Below, piece by piece: positions 1 to 5,101 of a DNA stretch of 5,101 bases. Both the position numbers and the translations under genes were made by a program. The stretch's first letter is position 1. Each line of letters opens with the position of its first letter. The notes under the pieces are model-generated. The model saw only the letters and a program-made list of their open reading frames with translations. It did no database searches and had not been told where the DNA came from. The stretch is from a virus: positions 1 to 5,101 of the IMG/VR virus record IMGVR_UViG_3300014637_000001; one strand, 5' to 3'.

Positions 1-118
1 ATATTATACATTATACGAAGCGGTAAAAATAACTATGTGTAATGTATAGTTTTATTTCGGTTTTCCGAAGATTTCAGGATGTGCAATGTTACTTGCACCA
101 TCCTCATCCAAGACATCA
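1..118. repeat. Direct terminal repeat, copy 1 (identical to 4984..5101); marks circular closure or a tandem junction of a 4,983-bp unit
   Basis: Base-by-base comparison of 1..118 with 4984..5101 shows 118/118 identity (offset 4983). Confidence 0.97.
76..104 (-). other. Imperfect hairpin immediately downstream of the gene V-slot ORF (possible transcript 3' structure or origin element)
   Basis: aggatgtgcaa (76-86) pairs with ttgcac-c-atcct (93-104): 6 bp, a 1-nt bulge, then 5 bp, with a 6-nt loop tgttac. A second mini-hairpin ttcgg-tttt-ccgaa lies at 56-69. No U-tract follows on the minus strand. Confidence 0.4.
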
Positions 119-122
119 ATCA

Positions 123-419
123 TTAAATTACCTTTGGCAACTCAACTTGTTTAACGACATACTTCATAGATTTTCCTGAAGTAACCATTTCAAATGTGAT
201 GTCAGCTTCTAACGGAAATTTATGTTGCTTAAGCAACACTAAATTAGTTCGGTCTTGCCAGTTAAATACTTCACAAGCATTGCCAACAGCATTACCTTGA
301 GATTGATCAAGCGGAACCTCACAGTACAAAGCTACATGATCATAATGACGACCATCGTCAGTTTTAAAATCAACAGCCTTAGCACCTAAGATTTTCACTT
401 TGTTTTTAAATTGCATCAT
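123..419 (-). CDS. 98-aa protein in the gene V position; putative ssDNA-binding protein (assigned by synteny only)
   Basis: ATG at 417-419 lies 2 nt after the Rep stop (TAG, 422-424). GGAGA sits 8 nt upstream. Size and position directly after the initiator match inovirus gene V / rstB-slot proteins. No motif I can recognise with certainty. Confidence 0.55.
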   Translation of the reverse strand: MMQFKNKVKILGAKAVDFKTDDGRHYDHVALYCEVPLDQSQGNAVGNACEVFNWQDRTNLVLLKQHKFPLEADITFEMVTSGKSMKYVVKQVELPKVI

Positions 420-421
420 TG

Positions 422-1579
422 CTACATTCTCCGAGCAGTTATAAGCACATGATCCAACCGCTTCGGATAAGCGAATTGATCAGAGCAAGAAATAATATTG
501 ATTAACTCTTCAGGTTCAAAAACCTGTTTAAAAACATTGATATACTTGCCATATTGGTGTTTAAGATTTTTAATAGCAGTATCAAAGTTAATGCGTGCAA
601 CCTTTTGAATTGTTTCAATTCTTGCAGGTTGAATATCTTCAGATAGAAATGCGAAACATGGATATGAGGCTATAAAATACTCACTTGGAGCCAACAACAT
701 ATCGAACGGTAAAACGCGATCAATTGATTTAAATTCAACTTCAGCACGTTGCCAGTTATCATTCGGATCACCCTCAGCACGACCTTTCTCGTACAAACGA
801 AGCATCTTGCCTGATTCACGTGCACCGACCATTAAAGTGCGTCCTTTACCGTTTGGACGTTTCCAATTGCCTTTATGTTCGATATTCGGCATACGGTTAC
901 CACAGCTAAAACCGCCTAAACCATCTTGCATATTGCCCCAGTCAACATTGATCTTTTTACCTTCAAAATCGTCATGTGCAATATCAACACGAGTTAATTT
1001 AGCTCGTTTGGCCATAGTTACTAAGAAGTTGTAAAGTCTTAATTCCCAACCACTTTTAGCAAAGTTGCAACCACGACCGTTGATCATAATTAAGATGGTA
1101 TTTCGTTGACCGCCAATGCAGACAAATCCGAAATCTTCACCTAGTACATAGCTTTCTTTATAGAAATTAAGACCACCATGACGGCATGCAGTCGTTGAGA
1201 ATCCAAAGATGTGGTGTAACTGGTGGTCCAGTTCTTCTACAGCAGCCGTCCAACGGTGTGTATCGATGATGTATTCGTCTTCATTCCAATACTTGTCACC
1301 TAAAGTCTCAATTCCGATTGTGAAATTTACCCAGTCAATCACGGCAATTTCATTGTCAGCAGGCAAACGGCATTGAACTGGTTTAACACCTGAAGATGTC
1401 ATCACCATATGAGCATATGGAATTGTGTATAACGAATGCTCTTGATACGGGAGATCGGCGTCTTGCAGTTGCGTATCGGATGTCTTTACCCCCATCTTAT
1501 TAATGGGGGTTACAACCATCGCATTTTTCAATCCCCCCGATAAAGCTGTGGGGTTTGGTTGTTTTTTATACTTATCCAT
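422..1579 (-). CDS. Rolling-circle replication initiation protein, Rep_trans (PF02486-like) family, as in CTXphi RstA and many inovirus pII analogues
   Basis: 385-aa ORF with GGGGA 5 nt upstream of the ATG. Motifs typical of the family as I recall it: KLTRVDIAHDDF, GRTLMVGARESGKMLRLYEKGRAEG, WQRAEVEFK. Confidence 0.88.
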   Translation of the reverse strand: MDKYKKQPNPTALSGGLKNAMVVTPINKMGVKTSDTQLQDADLPYQEHSLYTIPYAHMVMTSSGVKPVQCRLPADNEIAVIDWVNFTIGIETLGDKYWNEDEYIIDTHRWTAAVEELDHQLHHIFGFSTTACRHGGLNFYKESYVLGEDFGFVCIGGQRNTILIMINGRGCNFAKSGWELRLYNFLVTMAKRAKLTRVDIAHDDFEGKKINVDWGNMQDGLGGFSCGNRMPNIEHKGNWKRPNGKGRTLMVGARESGKMLRLYEKGRAEGDPNDNWQRAEVEFKSIDRVLPFDMLLAPSEYFIASYPCFAFLSEDIQPARIETIQKVARINFDTAIKNLKHQYGKYINVFKQVFEPEELINIISCSDQFAYPKRLDHVLITARRM

Positions 1580-1745
1580 TGCATTCCCCAGATTTAATAA
1601 TCATGTCGTAAGATTGACGAATAACAATCAATTCACGAAGAACTGGATCCGTAAATGCAACAGAATCGTTGTGCATGAGAGATTCAATTAAATCCATTAA
1701 CTCAGATCGATGTCTAACAATCAGATCCATTTGCTCTTTATCCAT
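1572..1745 (-). CDS. 57-aa hypothetical helical protein (hand-found ORF, absent from the ORF track)
   Basis: My translation: MDKEQMDLIVRHRSELMDLIESLMHNDSVAFTDPVLRELIVIRQSYDMIIKSGECNG. Its ATG (1743-1745) shares one base with the TAA of the upstream 93-aa ORF (TAATG). Its TAA (1572-1574) lies inside ATGGATAA at the start of rep. GGGGA sits 7 nt upstream of the ATG. It fills an otherwise non-coding 165-bp gap. Confidence 0.6.
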   Translation of the reverse strand: MDKEQMDLIVRHRSELMDLIESLMHNDSVAFTDPVLRELIVIRQSYDMIIKSGECNG

Positions 1746-2026
1746 TAGCAAATCCCCATAGAGCGAAAATTGTCATTCTCAGCTTTCAACATGTCGTAGT
1801 ACTCCGCTACTTTGGCAGACTTATAGCCCCACTCCACCATGCACATTTCTATGTGACGTAGAACAAGCTCCGACTCGTAAGCAGGATTTCCCCCAACAAC
1901 TAACGTGCAGGCTCTATCGAAAATGATCTTAGCCACGATCTCGAATGCTTGTTCTTTATCCATATATGATTTATCACAAATGATATTTTGTGTTTTTATA
2001 ACATCTAATTTGTGATTTAGCAACAT
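1745..2026 (-). CDS. Hypothetical small protein (93 aa maximal; possibly 72 aa from the internal ATG at 1961-1963)
   Basis: First ORF downstream of the divergent promoter region. Neither candidate start has an SD. A sigma70-like promoter (TTGCTA-17 nt-TATAAA on the minus strand, plus coordinates 2018-2023 and 1995-2000) overlaps the upstream ATG, which favours the MDKEQ start. Confidence 0.6.
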   Translation of the reverse strand: MLLNHKLDVIKTQNIICDKSYMDKEQAFEIVAKIIFDRACTLVVGGNPAYESELVLRHIEMCMVEWGYKSAKVAEYYDMLKAENDNFRSMGIC

Positions 2027-2036
2027 ATCATAAAAT
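1973..2036. promoter_or_regulatory. Divergent promoter/operator region between the replication operon (-) and the RHH regulator gene (+)
   Basis: Minus strand: TTGCTA (2023-2018), 17 nt, TATAAA (2000-1995). Plus strand: TTGTGA (2010-2015), 15 nt, TAAAAT (2031-2036). The TTTGTG(AT) motif occurs three times: ATCACAAA at 1973-1980 (inverted), TTTGTG at 1987-1992 and TTTGTGAT at 2009-2016. The first two form the palindrome cacaaa-N6-tttgtg. Confidence 0.45.
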
Positions 2037-2077
2037 ATAAATCAGATATGATGTGTCACCTTTTAGGAGTAAGACAA

Positions 2078-2272
2078 ATGGCAGTTACAGTTAGACTTAG
2101 AGACGAAGAAGAAGATATGGTCAAAGAAACGACCTTAGAAATGATGTTCGAAACAAAAATCCGAATTAAAGAATCGGATGTACTTCACACTTTAATAAGA
2201 AAGTATTTAAAAGACATCAAAACTGAAGATGTGATGAAGTACCGAGCGGAAGTACTTAAAAAAGACGATTAA
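2078..2272 (+). CDS. 64-aa ribbon-helix-helix (CopG/Arc-like) transcriptional regulator; candidate phage repressor (functional analogue of rstR)
   Basis: AGGAG (2065-2069) sits 8 nt upstream of the ATG at 2078. The N-terminus MAVTVRLRDEEE fits an RHH beta-strand, followed by two helices (DMVKETTLEMMFE; SDVLHTLIRKYLKD). It is the only + strand gene and is divergent from the rep operon. The track start at 2048 lacks an SD. Confidence 0.6.
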   Translation: MAVTVRLRDEEEDMVKETTLEMMFETKIRIKESDVLHTLIRKYLKDIKTEDVMKYRAEVLKKDD

Positions 2273-2319
2273 TTGTTTATATTGATCCAGAGTACTAACT
2301 GCCCCCTGCTCTAGCCTTC

Positions 2320-2418
2320 AGATCGCATAATGCCGACTATGTAAAAAAACGCCGATTTGCCCACAGGAATGGTTGCAAATCGGCTATGTTACATAATCTG
2401 GCATACATTATGCGAACT
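2320..2418. other. ~99-nt imperfect hairpin built from two inverted dif-like half-sites; candidate folded ssDNA attP (CTXphi-like), alternatively a packaging signal
   Basis: Plus strand 2320-2347: AGATCGCATAA-TGCCGA-CTATGTAAAAA. Minus strand 2418-2386: AGTTCGCATAA-TGTATGCCAGA-TTATGTAACAT. The arms pair 2320-2330/2408-2418 (10 of 11) and 2338-2344/2389-2395 (7 of 7). The central part pairs with 4-nt and 1-nt bulges. The inner stem is 2351-2360/2375-2384 (10 bp). Confidence 0.5.
2343..2384 (-). terminator. Rho-independent terminator for the 73-aa gene (minus strand); may also stop the convergent RHH transcript
   Basis: Perfect 10-bp stem gccgatttgc/gcaaatcggc with a 14-nt loop. On the minus strand it is followed by g + T7 (A7 at 2343-2349 on plus). 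It lies 43 nt downstream of the 73-aa ORF stop. Confidence 0.6.
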
Positions 2419-2426
2419 TTCAGTCA

Positions 2427-2648
2427 TTAATTTTTAGGCAAAGAATTATCTGCAAAGGTGGTTACTTGCTCTAAAATATCAAACGCTTTATTAATACTTT
2501 CTTTATCAGTTAAGTAACCACATTTCACTAAAACATCAACTGCACCAGATAACTCGTTTAGATTTCTTAAACAATCCAAAGGTAATAAAGAAGTATCTAT
2601 CACTTGGCTTGCTTTTTCTTCCAAATATTCAAAAACTTGTTTTGTCAT
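2427..2648 (-). CDS. 73-aa acidic, soluble hypothetical protein
   Basis: ATG at 2646-2648 with GGGGGA 3-4 nt upstream. It has its own upstream TATAAT (2700-2695 on minus) and downstream terminator. There is no hydrophobic segment, so it is not a pVI analogue. Confidence 0.65.
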   Translation of the reverse strand: MTKQVFEYLEEKASQVIDTSLLPLDCLRNLNELSGAVDVLVKCGYLTDKESINKAFDILEQVTTFADNSLPKN

Positions 2649-2662
2649 ATATCCCCCGTCAA

Positions 2663-2748
2663 AGTGTCTAGACTACGCCTTGAGACACTCAAAAATTATA
2701 CAAGATTTAATTGTTTACTCGATGTGTCTCAATTCCCCTGAAGACACT
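2663..2748. promoter_or_regulatory. Two copies of an inverted-repeat unit GTGTCT-N12/13-AGACAC in the pIII-like/orf73 intergenic region; candidate operators flanking a TATAAT -10
   Basis: agtgtct 2663-2669 pairs with agacact 2683-2689. gtgtct 2724-2729 pairs with agacac 2742-2747. Unit centres are ~60 bp apart. A minus-strand TATAAT at 2700-2695 lies between the two units. Confidence 0.4.
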
Positions 2749-2864
2749 TCTCTGTTAATTCTACGTCACACCGAAGAGCCGGTTTTTGTAATCAAAGAGG
2801 AAGATTTTCAAGTCTTTACAAATCCCAATTTGGATCGCGTTCAAGCCCCCTTTGTATATAATTT

Positions 2865-4283
2865 TCAGCGTATTGAATTGGTTGCTGACGTGGTTGTGTC
2901 TGCTCCAGCTAGAACCGCAGGCTTAAAGAAAATAAGAGCATTACAAACAGGTTGATAAGGTAATTCAATCGTATAACTTTGCCCCATCACCGTAAATTGA
3001 ACAGAATCCTTAGGACAATCATTTGAGCCTGTAAGAGTGACTTTTTCTGCTGATACATCATCATCATTAATTTCAGCTTCTTCTGGATCAGAATGATCTG
3101 GATCTTCTTTCATCCACTCATCTGTCTTTTTCCAGTCGTCATACCATTCGCACATCTTAAATGCCCATTCACAGAAGACAGGAAATTCAATAGAAATAGA
3201 CTGGCCACCAGTAGGATTACCATCAGCATCTTTTATTGGTTCTGATTTACCATCAGCAGTACCGCCATCATCTTTCCAAGAGCGGTCATTTACGTTAGGT
3301 TGTGATGAAGTTGGAGGATTTGAATAACGTGGATCACCAAAAGGTGCAGGCTGACCATCTGGAGTTAATGGAGCATTTTTAATTTTATCATCCATTTCCT
3401 TAGCAAGATCATCGCCAATACCCGTTGGATCATGCTTATATGCGTCTGCAACAGATTCATTCATTAAACCAGTGTTAACACGTGCATCAAGTGTTGGATC
3501 AACTGGGTCGGTGTAACCTTCACCGAGCATTGCAGCACCCAACAATTCAGGCGTTAAAGGTATCTTTTCTTTAGCAGCGTTAGGGTCAAAATCAGGATTT
3601 TTATATTGCAGAATTGCTGAAGAACCAGTAGTCGTAGTAGTAGCACCATTTTTCCAAGTGAATTTACAAGTTAAAGGTCTTTCAGTTGAAGAGCTATAAG
3701 TATAGTTACGGCCAGGTAAGACTTTATTTAAATACTGCATTTCGAGCATACAAGAATCTCGCGCAGTACATGAAGATGTATTAGCTTGTCCACCATTCTG
3801 AGCATAAACAAGGAATTCACATTCTTTATTAACACGCTTGTATTTAACGTATCCACCCTCAGTCATCACCCAACCAATGCCCTCGATTAGTTGCTGTACA
3901 GCATAAACACCAAGCAATTGCACACCCGGATTTCTTGCATAAAAAGCTACACGTTGAAGCATTGTTGCGCCGACTTTGCTAGCAGTAGGTACTGTTTCAG
4001 CAATAGCAATTTTAGTAACAGTCCTACTTTTAGCTGTTACAGGATCAGATTCTAGAAATGAACGCGCAGAACGTCCGTAGACACGTTTTGCGTAACCCTC
4101 ACGATTTTGCTGTAATTTAATTTCACGCTGTAGCCACCAGTCACCGTCATCAACTGCATTGGCTTCGTTCATTAGAATTATTGGTGAAAGGATAATTGAG
4201 ATGGATAAGTAAAAGCGGATTGTTGTTGAAATTGTTCTTTTTAAAACATTTTTATACCAATATAAATCATCATTAATAGCCAT
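2865..4283 (-). CDS. 472-aa secreted protein in the gene III slot; putative minor coat / host adsorption protein (pIII-like)
   Basis: Signal peptide (KNVLKR..FYLSISIILSPIILMNEANA|VDD). N-terminal domain with 4 Cys, then a long Pro/Asp/Gly/Thr-rich linker. C-terminal Cys/Trp-rich acidic domain (FCEWAFKMCEWYDDWKKTDEW) with a modestly hydrophobic tail (CNALIFFKPAVLAGA). It lies directly downstream of the major coat gene. No Walker A motif. Confidence 0.62.
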   Translation of the reverse strand: MAINDDLYWYKNVLKRTISTTIRFYLSISIILSPIILMNEANAVDDGDWWLQREIKLQQNREGYAKRVYGRSARSFLESDPVTAKSRTVTKIAIAETVPTASKVGATMLQRVAFYARNPGVQLLGVYAVQQLIEGIGWVMTEGGYVKYKRVNKECEFLVYAQNGGQANTSSCTARDSCMLEMQYLNKVLPGRNYTYSSSTERPLTCKFTWKNGATTTTTGSSAILQYKNPDFDPNAAKEKIPLTPELLGAAMLGEGYTDPVDPTLDARVNTGLMNESVADAYKHDPTGIGDDLAKEMDDKIKNAPLTPDGQPAPFGDPRYSNPPTSSQPNVNDRSWKDDGGTADGKSEPIKDADGNPTGGQSISIEFPVFCEWAFKMCEWYDDWKKTDEWMKEDPDHSDPEEAEINDDDVSAEKVTLTGSNDCPKDSVQFTVMGQSYTIELPYQPVCNALIFFKPAVLAGADTTTSATNSIR

Positions 4284-4314
4284 ATGTACGCCCCAATATC
4301 ACCCATGCTTCACC

Positions 4315-4358
4315 CCGTAAACGCGACTGCGAGCCCTCGCGCGTTTACGGTGGCTCGC
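4315..4358. other. GC-rich structured element between the coat and pIII-like genes (two competing stems)
   Basis: An 11-bp perfect stem ccgtaaacgcg (4315-4325) / cgcgtttacgg (4340-4350) with a 14-nt loop. gcgagcc (4329-4335, inside that loop) is complementary to ggctcgc (4352-4358). No U-tract follows on the coding (minus) strand. Confidence 0.5.
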
Positions 4359-4375
4359 ATGTAATACATTGGTTC

Positions 4376-4594
4376 TTAGAATGCAGAACGGATGTATTTA
4401 AATACTTTAATACCTAGCGGAATCAAAATTGCAGCAGCAGCAACAGCAGCCCCCGCAGTTGCAGCACCTGATAACTCACCAGTAATTGAAGTAGTATCTA
4501 CAGCAGCATTAGATGCAGCAGCAGCCCCCGCAGCAGACGCTACTACAGCAGCTTGTTTTAAACGTTGAATCATTGCTTGTTTTTTAGTGTTCAT
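4376..4594 (-). CDS. Inovirus major coat protein precursor (pVIII-like), 72 aa
   Basis: AAGGAG sits 6 nt upstream of the ATG at 4592-4594. Leader MNTKKQAMIQRLKQAAVVASAAGAAAASNA ends in an A-x-A-type cleavage site. The ~42-aa mature part has an acidic N-terminus (AVDTTSITGE), an Ala-rich hydrophobic core and a basic C-terminus (KVFKYIRSAF), which is the classic pVIII layout. The track TTG start at 4615 is unlikely. Confidence 0.88.
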   Translation of the reverse strand: MNTKKQAMIQRLKQAAVVASAAGAAAASNAAVDTTSITGELSGAATAGAAVAAAAILIPLGIKVFKYIRSAF

Positions 4595-4604
4595 GATGAA
4601 CTCC

Positions 4605-4799
4605 TTACTTTTCAAAATTTTGCACCCGTATGACTTTTATGGCCCATACGACTGCGAGACATAACCAAAAAGCGCCCCCAATTTGTGTTGCTTCGGCGTA
4701 GCTCATTGGTGGTAAATAAAGGTCAGCTTGACCCCATGTAAGACAGGTCTGCACCCCATTAGCATCGGATGACGATAATTGCTTACAGACCATATCCAT
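4605..4799 (-). CDS. 64-aa small membrane protein with one C-terminal TM helix; possible minor virion or assembly protein (pVII/pIX slot)
   Basis: ATG at 4797-4799 with GGGGA 9 nt upstream. TM segment IGGAFWLCLAVVWAIKVI. Its stop TAA (4605-4607) overlaps the coat gene SD (agTAAGGAG), implying coupled expression. Confidence 0.6.
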   Translation of the reverse strand: MDMVCKQLSSSDANGVQTCLTWGQADLYLPPMSYAEATQIGGAFWLCLAVVWAIKVIRVQNFEK

Positions 4800-4819
4800 T
4801 TCTTAAAATCCCCAATAAA

Positions 4820-4855
4820 TTGCTGGCTTGCGTTCCCGCCCCCAAAAGCCAGCAA
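4820..4855 (-). terminator. Stem-loop just upstream of the structural module (terminator/attenuator-like, or a DNA-level element)
   Basis: A 10-bp stem ttgctggctt (4820-4829) / aagccagcaa (4846-4855) with a G/C-rich 16-nt loop. On the minus strand it is followed by TTTATT and then the GGGGA SD of the 64-aa ORF. Confidence 0.4.
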
Positions 4856-4860
4856 ATCTG

Positions 4861-4950
4861 TTATTTACACTTATAAAAATGGATGCAGTAACTTGAATGT
4901 TTTGTAAACCCTGCACCGCACTTCTTGCATTTATAAACGTATTCTGTCAT
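4861..4950 (-). CDS. Possible 29-aa mini-ORF with a C2HC zinc-finger-like pattern (low confidence as a real gene)
   Basis: My translation: MTEYVYKCKKCGAGFTKHSSYCIHFYKCK. It fits Y-x-C-x2-C-x3-F-x5-Y-x2-H-x3-C. The stop lies 5 nt before the 4820-4855 hairpin. No SD upstream (tatttttaatATG). Confidence 0.3.
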   Translation of the reverse strand: MTEYVYKCKKCGAGFTKHSSYCIHFYKCK

Positions 4951-4976
4951 ATTAAAAATACACGCAAGTTATTGAT

Positions 4977-5004
4977 TTTTAACATATTATACATTATACG
5001 AAGC
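4977..5004 (-). other. 28-bp dif-like XerC/XerD recombination site (candidate dsDNA attP)
   Basis: Minus strand reads GCTTCGTATAA-TGTATA-ATATGTTAAAA. Against E. coli dif GGTGCGCATAA-TGTATA-TTATGTTAAAT this is 8/11, 6/6 and 9/11, total 23/28. The TTCGTATAA XerC arm resembles Acinetobacter pdif-type sites as I recall them. The site spans the circular junction, so 1..21 repeats its XerC-side part. Confidence 0.6.
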
Positions 5005-5101
5005 GGTAAAAATAACTATGTGTAATGTATAGTTTTATTTCGGTTTTCCGAAGATTTCAGGATGTGCAATGTTACTTGCACCATCCTCATCCAAGACATC
5101 A
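4984..5101. repeat. Direct terminal repeat, copy 2 (identical to 1..118)
   Basis: Same comparison as copy 1. The repeat runs to the last base of the window, so its true length could be limited by the window edge. Confidence 0.97.

Follow-up and report, generated by a model that had tools for sequence, protein, structure and literature searches.

The DNA analysed here is positions 1 to 5,101 of IMG/VR virus record IMGVR_UViG_3300014637_000001 (5,101 nt, hereafter the window), and it carries a filamentous phage (inovirus) element that a first-pass annotation, made from the sequence alone, had proposed to be a complete, helper-dependent mini-inovirus. A direct terminal repeat of 118 nt (positions 1–118 and 4984–5101, 100% identical, spacing 4983) closes a unit of 4,983 bp, as that annotation had recognized, and the G+C content of the window is 35–45%. 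Every credible gene lies on the minus strand, with the exception of an open reading frame (ORF) at 2048–2272 (+). Nineteen window ORFs were scanned against Pfam and PHROG families, which identified a rolling-circle replication initiator of the Rep_trans family (385 aa, 422–1579, −; PF02486, E = 2.4e-18; phrog_453, E = 1.5e-82), a 98-aa protein that immediately follows Rep and occupies the gene V slot (123–419, −; phrog_4994, E = 2e-20), a major coat protein precursor of the pVIII type with a signal peptide (72 aa from its ATG, 4376–4594 within ORF 4376–4615, −; Phage_Coat_B, PF05356, E = 1.9e-11) and a truncated pIII (adsorption protein) ORF of 472 aa (2865–4283, −; phrog_7568, E = 1e-85). At 2905/2906 lies a deletion junction, adjoined by a remnant of the zot/pI gene (2816–2905, −).

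The replication and coat assignments of the first-pass annotation were upheld. An AlphaFold model of the 98-aa protein, built from 23 homologues, had a predicted local distance difference test score (pLDDT) of 88.7, and its top Foldseek matches in the PDB were PriB and SSB, with template modelling (TM) scores of 0.5–0.6; this OB fold, like that of SSB/PriB, supports the gene V assignment, and Rep is thus followed by a single-stranded DNA (ssDNA)-binding protein. The assembly collection indexes the exact 98-aa protein in 2,555 blocks, and in 10 of the 10 places shown, all of them chromosomal filamentous prophages of Acinetobacter, the protein directly follows Rep_trans. An exact look-up of the 385-aa Rep returned no record, probably because a different start was called elsewhere. 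The coat protein was also called as 72 aa in other relatives, including L004 and L009 (fetched relatives are given L numbers).

The adsorption gene, which had been counted as the element's own, is indeed a homologue of the 'TspB C-terminal domain-related' proteins that occupy the pIII slot, but it is not intact. A search of 5.8 billion proteins returned 161 homologues of the 472-aa ORF, most of them Acinetobacter proteins of this name. Bases 2906–4283 encode pIII codons 1–459, including the signal peptide, and bases 2865–2905 add 13 out-of-frame, zot-derived codons and a stop; the last 20 residues of every close homologue, and with them the second half of the membrane anchor, are lost. All eight aligned close homologues run …LPYQPVCNALIFFKPAVLA-VGAITSAFIVAGINVKGED to the stop, where the window reads …PAVLA-GADTTTSATNSIR; in the aligned tails the homologues continue …AVLAVGAITSAFIVAGINVKGED and the window …AVLAGADTTTSATNSIR, each up to its stop, and the departure falls exactly after …PAVLA. 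The best 19-residue Kyte-Doolittle window scored 1.13 in this tail, compared with 2.11 for the parent. Apart from the ORF itself, its 90% cluster contains only P0121 (478 aa), which shows two substitutions before the junction and a full anchor, and among approximately 15 billion proteins the exact fusion ORF was recorded in one sample only. As read from these alignments, the supposed adsorption protein of 472 aa is a pIII without its anchor, joined out of frame to what is left of zot.

Two full-length phage contigs, L007 (JGI 3300011536, a 13.7-kb contig) and L008 (Logan SRR1748657, 6,708 nt), align to the window in two pieces, the first (window 3603→2906) reaching to within 59 nt of the pIII stop and the second (window 2905→2434, 92.4% identity) starting 90 nt before the zot stop, and the 1,493 bp that lie between these pieces in both contigs are missing from the window. 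The minus-strand sequence across the junction is …GCGGTTCTAGCTG/GAGCAGACACAACC…, and microhomology amounts to 0–1 nt. Colinearity with all relatives is lost within 3 nt of it (at 2906 or 2903), and none of the 31-mers common to the window and any relative spans it. The same single break was found against L021, L023, L030, L079, L085, L093 and others, whose Rep module is 95–96% identical, and the relatives that hold both modules (including also L015, L018, L020 and L028) are colinear with the window except for the jump at this position. The zot/pI remnant comprises the last 29 codons and the stop (…EQTQPRQQPIQYAENYIQRGLERDPNWDL), without a start codon or the ATPase domain. In its own frame this stub reads …QPRQQPIQYAENYIQRGLERDPNWDL up to the stop, as does the Zot of L008, which ends in …QRQQPIQYAENYIQRGLERDPNWDL and scores 42.8 bits against a Pfam Zot cut-off of 20.3. 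The stub was also recovered by tblastn, with an E-value of 0.003 for the Zot of L001 and, for the Zot proteins of plasmid relatives, as a C-terminal remnant at window 2896–2831 in a frame other than that of the 472-aa ORF. The 13 codons newly added to the C-terminus of this ORF are the 3' end of zot in another frame. Moreover, window 2645–2810 is homologous to DNA just downstream of zot in two Acinetobacter plasmid records. Both breakpoints are intragenic, in gene III and in zot. Adding the 1,493 bp back gives approximately 6.48 kb, the norm for the family, and the view of the element as smaller than any autonomous inovirus does not survive this correction.

The near-identical longer relative that the first-pass annotation had named beforehand as speaking against its own proposal was found. 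L009, a Logan contig from the independent run ERR12362600, shows 2 mismatches in 2,112 nt to the window (5017→2906, 99.905% identity), departs exactly at 2906 and continues with the last 20 pIII codons (the anchor), a 94-aa DUF2523/pVI gene and a Zot gene, the N-terminus of which holds an intact Walker A motif (GQPRNGKS). The same intact pIII end, followed by pVI, is present in L010 (IMG/VR 3300011152_000007). A 34-mer from the pIII side of the junction matched two loci in IMG/VR, both with an intact pIII end (L010 and L011, the latter on the 13.7-kb contig of L007), and had no match in the metagenome or genome collections. L094 was considered as a complete parent, since its pVI is 100% identical to that of L009, but was rejected because its identity to the window is only 78–87%. 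When the pIII tails of the fetched relatives were surveyed, the pVI gene came directly next in 42 and an insertion sequence (IS) element lay between in 3, while the truncated tail occurred only in the window and in L004 (Logan SRR1748910_1113), which is the same element. L077, L028 and L107 (CP033754.1 and IMG 2938828005) have, in an otherwise related prophage, an rve-family IS that separates gene III from the pVI gene and a second one after zot; these insertions are a different route to a defective assembly module.

Searching the unit by blastn against the deposited-phage collection returned nothing, the relatives being filed as plasmids and prophages. Matches were obtained to Acinetobacter 'plasmids' of 6.4–6.7 kb and to a tandem insertion in plasmid pC9_1. 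Both pC9_1 and a 6.6-kb A. baumannii plasmid hold the pIII homologue, directly followed by the DUF2523 (pVI) gene and then the Zot gene, and an A. johnsonii plasmid has Zot after pIII with no pVI annotated between them. For Rep, 99%-identical copies were found in dozens of IMG/VR contigs, most of which are 6.1–7 kb long.

In line with the claim that the element encodes no pI/Zot, pVI or secretin, none of the 19 scanned ORFs matched Zot, DUF2523 or any secretin family in the profile search, even at E ≤ 1, and the element could thus not assemble virions itself. Likewise, tblastn of the window with the Zot and pVI proteins of relatives found nothing beyond a Zot C-terminal remnant of 22–30 codons. 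Of a Zot/pI-type ATPase (PF05707) the window keeps only the 29-codon C-terminal stub, and it lacks the succession of a pIII-type protein with C-terminal anchor and pVI (DUF2523). The statement that no GxxxxGK[ST] string occurs on either strand was too strict, as two P-loop-like strings, and no others, occur in the window, one (GGTADGKS) within the Gly-rich linker of the 472-aa protein and the other in a 25-codon frame. GGTADGKS is not an NTPase motif, and it was rejected as the mark of a hidden ATPase because the linker is conserved in pIII homologues. A conserved 73-aa ORF (2427–2648, −) and a 64-aa ORF (4605–4799, −) were rejected as stand-ins for pVI, since full-length relatives hold both of them alongside a true DUF2523 gene, and the 73-aa ORF is not a replacement for pI either. 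On sequence grounds, the absence of Zot/pI and pVI is the product of a recent internal deletion and not of design.

The remaining features are those of full-length relatives. The 73-aa ORF lies just downstream of zot in these genomes; the exact protein was found on 9 contigs and stands downstream of Zot in 5 of the 5 shown places that have upstream sequence (L077–L080 and L082), with an IS element between Zot and the ORF in L077, and a Pfam search with it gave no match. The 64-aa protein, small and with a hydrophobic tail (phrog_13391 and phrog_9110, E ~1e-8; phrog_4644 'tail protein', E = 1.4e-5), is kept before the coat gene in all relatives and is by its position a probable minor virion protein. 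Upstream of Rep, two small ORFs of 59 aa (1572–1751, −) and 93 aa (1745–2026, −), with a weak match to phrog_20873 (E = 5e-5), are colinear with relatives and form part of the replication/regulation module. The divergent 74-aa ORF (2048–2272, +; phrog_5219, E = 2.6e-17, a family of unknown function) is a putative regulator by position alone, and its place is taken in relatives by an opposite-strand ORF of 64–68 aa. The segment that contains it (1964–2303) is replaced in L015, L017 and L023, which are otherwise 95–96% identical, and is present in L016 and L093; it looks like an exchangeable regulatory or immunity cassette, by analogy with rstR in CTXphi. The intergenic region (4800–5101, −), colinear with the parents, contains an attP-like dif site (4977–5004) and strong ssDNA hairpins (fold z = −3.9), which are a candidate origin or packaging signal. 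A 29-aa ORF within it (4861–4950, −) had weak zinc-ribbon/C2H2-like matches (E ~0.004–0.007), all below the Pfam cut-offs, and may be a chance ORF.

The gene set was compared with the Af filamentous phages of Acinetobacter baumannii, described in 2024 (Viruses 2024;16:857, PMC11209303). The group C prophage of strain WCHAB005078 (CP027246.2, Figure 3B of that paper) corresponds to L084/L085. PMC11209303 describes replication/regulation modules at the flanks, tandem arrays and an integration that probably uses XerCD/dif; it refers in general terms to 'complete or incomplete prophage copies' and reports no form with the deletion of the window. Module-only circles or arrays are not described in its available text. 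Interrupted zot genes are mentioned in a 2025 paper on Egyptian isolates. In A. baumannii chromosomes the canonical order is regulator, 72 aa, Rep_trans, 98 aa, 64 aa, coat, pIII (~483 aa), DUF2523, Zot and 74 aa, often followed by a further copy of the replication module. The window shares with CP027246.2 the order and the homologous genes for the regulator, Rep (Rep_trans/NicK type), the 98-aa and 64-aa proteins, CoaB, CoaA (TspB-like pIII) and the 73/74-aa ORF. Homology is colinear over all retained genes, with 74–96% DNA identity to CP027246.2 (L085) and many others (96% in the Rep module and 74–84% in the structural module of CP027246.2), the 98-aa protein matches exactly, and exact matches to both the 98-aa and the 73-aa protein occur in Acinetobacter genomes. 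What the window lacks in comparison with the Af phages is the 1,493 bp that hold the end of coaA (gene III), pVI (DUF2523) and zot.

A dif-like attP and tandem arrays flanked by Rep modules are likewise features of the Af phages (PMC11209303). The attP-like dif site of the window (4977–5004, −; GCTTCGTATAA-TGTATA-ATATGTTAAAA) is identical to the one inside prophage L079, and at the right ends of L079 and L085 the hybrid sites carry a perfect XerD arm (TTATGTTAAAT); the site in the window has the sequence expected of a XerCD/dif-type attachment site. A second dif-like site with a degenerate XerD arm (2391–2418, −; AGTTCGCATAA-TGTATG-CCAGATTATGT) forms the left edge of the replication module, and module-only tandem units in relatives break at this site. 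The two sites, in direct orientation, bracket the replication module (window 2416 to 8, ~2.2 kb). This module was found alone in L014, as a 2,212-bp circle or tandem unit with a direct terminal repeat of 387, in two tandem copies in L017 and L026, beside full prophages in relatives such as L015, L030 and L028, and as a solo module in L016, a 14-kb contig without structural genes or Zot. The replication module alone is an RS1/CTXphi-like arrangement and the real satellite-like entity of the Af family.

The genome is modular, with the structural module (2906–5017) set apart from positions 1–2807. The structural module is 99.9% identical to L009 and only ~84% (coat side) and 74–79% (pIII) identical to relatives, for example L023, that have a 95–96% identical Rep_trans module. 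In L005–L008 a structural module of this type accompanies another initiator family, Phage_CRI/G2P_X_C. Chromosomal arrays in L086, L088 and L089 (e.g. CP144563.1) interleave Rep_trans plus 98-aa and Phage_CRI plus 107-aa modules in tandem, beside complete prophages, which suggests that several filamentous phages stack at one dif locus.

Taken together, the window very probably represents a spontaneous internal-deletion derivative of an ordinary ~6.5-kb XerCD/dif-type Acinetobacter filamentous phage with Af parents. The deletion, its exact borders and an intact, near-identical parent were observed directly. A single deletion of 1.49 kb starts where 20 codons of gene III are still to come and stops where 30 codons of zot (29 plus the stop) are left; it removes pVI (DUF2523) entirely, the membrane anchor of pIII by half and the Zot/pI ATPase except for the 90-nt stub. 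The element keeps Rep_trans together with the OB-fold ssDNA-binding protein and the regulatory ORFs, and also the 64-aa protein, the coat protein and the intergenic region that holds the dif-like attP and the hairpins. With this set it should be able to replicate by the rolling-circle mechanism as a plasmid-like replicative form (RF) and probably also to integrate through XerCD. Ff phages require each of pI, pVI and the C-terminal domain/anchor of pIII for assembly and release. As each of these is missing here, the element would at best replicate as RF/plasmid or sit integrated, and it should be unable to extrude virions alone. Export would be expected only if a co-resident full-length Af phage supplied pI, pVI and the pIII anchor function in trans, as with Ff/Pf miniphages and phagemids. 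The anchor-less pIII, having a signal peptide, would be periplasmic; that it might block superinfection is speculation.

Several points weigh against this explanation. The nearest parents on the zot side are only 92–96% identical, the junction and the circularity are read from assembled contigs only, and the two assemblies that share the junction are probably from the same sample and would not be independent biological observations. A co-resident helper is suggested by nothing beyond the position at which L004 ends: this contig stops at window 4838 and 2720, the latter inside a stretch (2400–2770) of exact 31-mers common to 28 relatives, which is a hint of a graph branch from a co-resident related phage and possible helper.

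The same deletion could be present in another physical state, namely as a defective prophage copy in a tandem array at a chromosomal dif site, the terminal repeat then stemming from the array, and we regard this as a possible but less than even prospect. At dif, tandem arrays and duplicated replication modules are common in this family (see also PMC11209303), and the repeat of the contig holds an attP-like dif site identical to the internal junction site of the integrated L079. The contig, however, has no host flank, and a replicative form would give the same assembly, so that sequence alone cannot separate the two; whether the DNA is drawn as a free circle or as a tandem prophage, it would carry the same deletion. 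More doubtful is a circulating 'cheater' miniphage of environmental Acinetobacter that would use its own Rep and ssDNA-binding protein, overproduce coat protein and be packaged by a co-resident Af phage, with the anchor-less pIII perhaps blocking superinfection.

We consider it improbable that the junction is an assembly or library chimera from a sample with full-length phage only. Such an artefact would fit the single sample involved, the knowledge from contigs rather than reads, the abundance of related phages in the same project (L007/L008 and the IMG/VR samples of the 33000111xx-119xx series), which makes graph tangles plausible, and the end of L004 inside family-conserved sequence. Against it, the exact fusion ORF is on record in the 5,101-nt JGI contig and in the Logan contig L004, and only in these; L004 is 100% identical to window 4838–2720 (2,119 nt) and passes through the junction without a branch. 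A common sample is probable for the two contigs, because the JGI/SRR1748xxx pairing is seen again in L007 and L008, but as they come from different assemblers and are identical across the junction, the junction does not depend on the assembler. Moreover, the joined sequences are unrelated and share no k-mer across the junction (0–1 nt of microhomology, no spanning 31-mer), which makes a de Bruijn misjoin between co-resident phages unlikely, as a graph join could arise only via real reads. The exact junction 34-mer was absent from JGI metagenome contigs and IMG/VR, and a 40-mer of the zot stub was absent from IMG/VR and GTDB genomes, both weak results because the window's own contig is evidently outside these collections.

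The proposal of the first-pass annotation, an evolved satellite mini-inovirus that keeps its own coat and receptor-binding protein as a distinct strategy and parasitises the pI, pVI and secretin of a helper, is close to refuted and very improbable: pI and pVI are truly absent, and Rep, the ssDNA-binding protein, the coat gene and the intergenic region are kept and colinear with functional relatives, but both breakpoints are intragenic, the pIII anchor is lost and replaced by an out-of-frame tail, a 90-nt zot stub is left behind, a 99.9%-identical intact parent exists, the divergence of the kind expected for a lineage is missing, and the architecture is unique among the fetched relatives and confined to one sample.

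RS1 and TLCphi of Vibrio cholerae depend on helpers for morphogenesis, are XerCD/dif-linked and form conserved lineages without structural genes. In contrast to these, the window is a one-off deletion with the coat genes kept, its fusion ORF and junction occur in one sample instead of recurring in a conserved lineage without morphogenesis genes, and the counterpart of RS1 in the Af family is the replication module alone, tandem or solo (L014, L016, L017 and L026). Closer to the window are miniphages, on which the classical studies are said to be those of Griffith & Kornberg 1974, Enea & Zinder 1975, Hewitt 1975 and Horiuchi 1983. The miniphages of Ff (M13/f1) and of Pf4/Pf5 are defective interfering deletion derivatives (PMC11996451). 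Like the window, in which the ends of the internal deletion ignore gene borders, they arise by spontaneous internal deletion of a full-length genome and lose trans-acting virion or assembly functions. They keep the cis-acting intergenic region, the counterpart of which in the window is a colinear, strongly structured candidate for the origin and packaging signal, and their export needs a full-length helper, as that of the window would. Ff miniphages lose nearly all cistrons and Pf5 miniphages the capsid genes and pfsE, whereas the window has lost only the assembly end (pIII anchor, pVI and pI) and keeps rep, the ssDNA-binding gene and the coat gene.

The appropriate classification is that of a defective deletion derivative of a known Acinetobacter inovirus; neither the label of smallest inovirus nor that of a new satellite strategy fits the element. 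It illustrates that a 'complete circular' call from a terminal repeat does not equal functional completeness, and that, where a hallmark gene is missing from a small viral contig, close relatives should be compared for intragenic breakpoints before a biological reading is given. Coexistence of the element with a full-length helper, if seen in reads and with the element at high relative depth, would make a modest natural case of miniphage cheating outside the laboratory, and if the cheater reading were true, the element would provide a natural, non-laboratory example of a defective interfering inovirus with a deleted assembly module.

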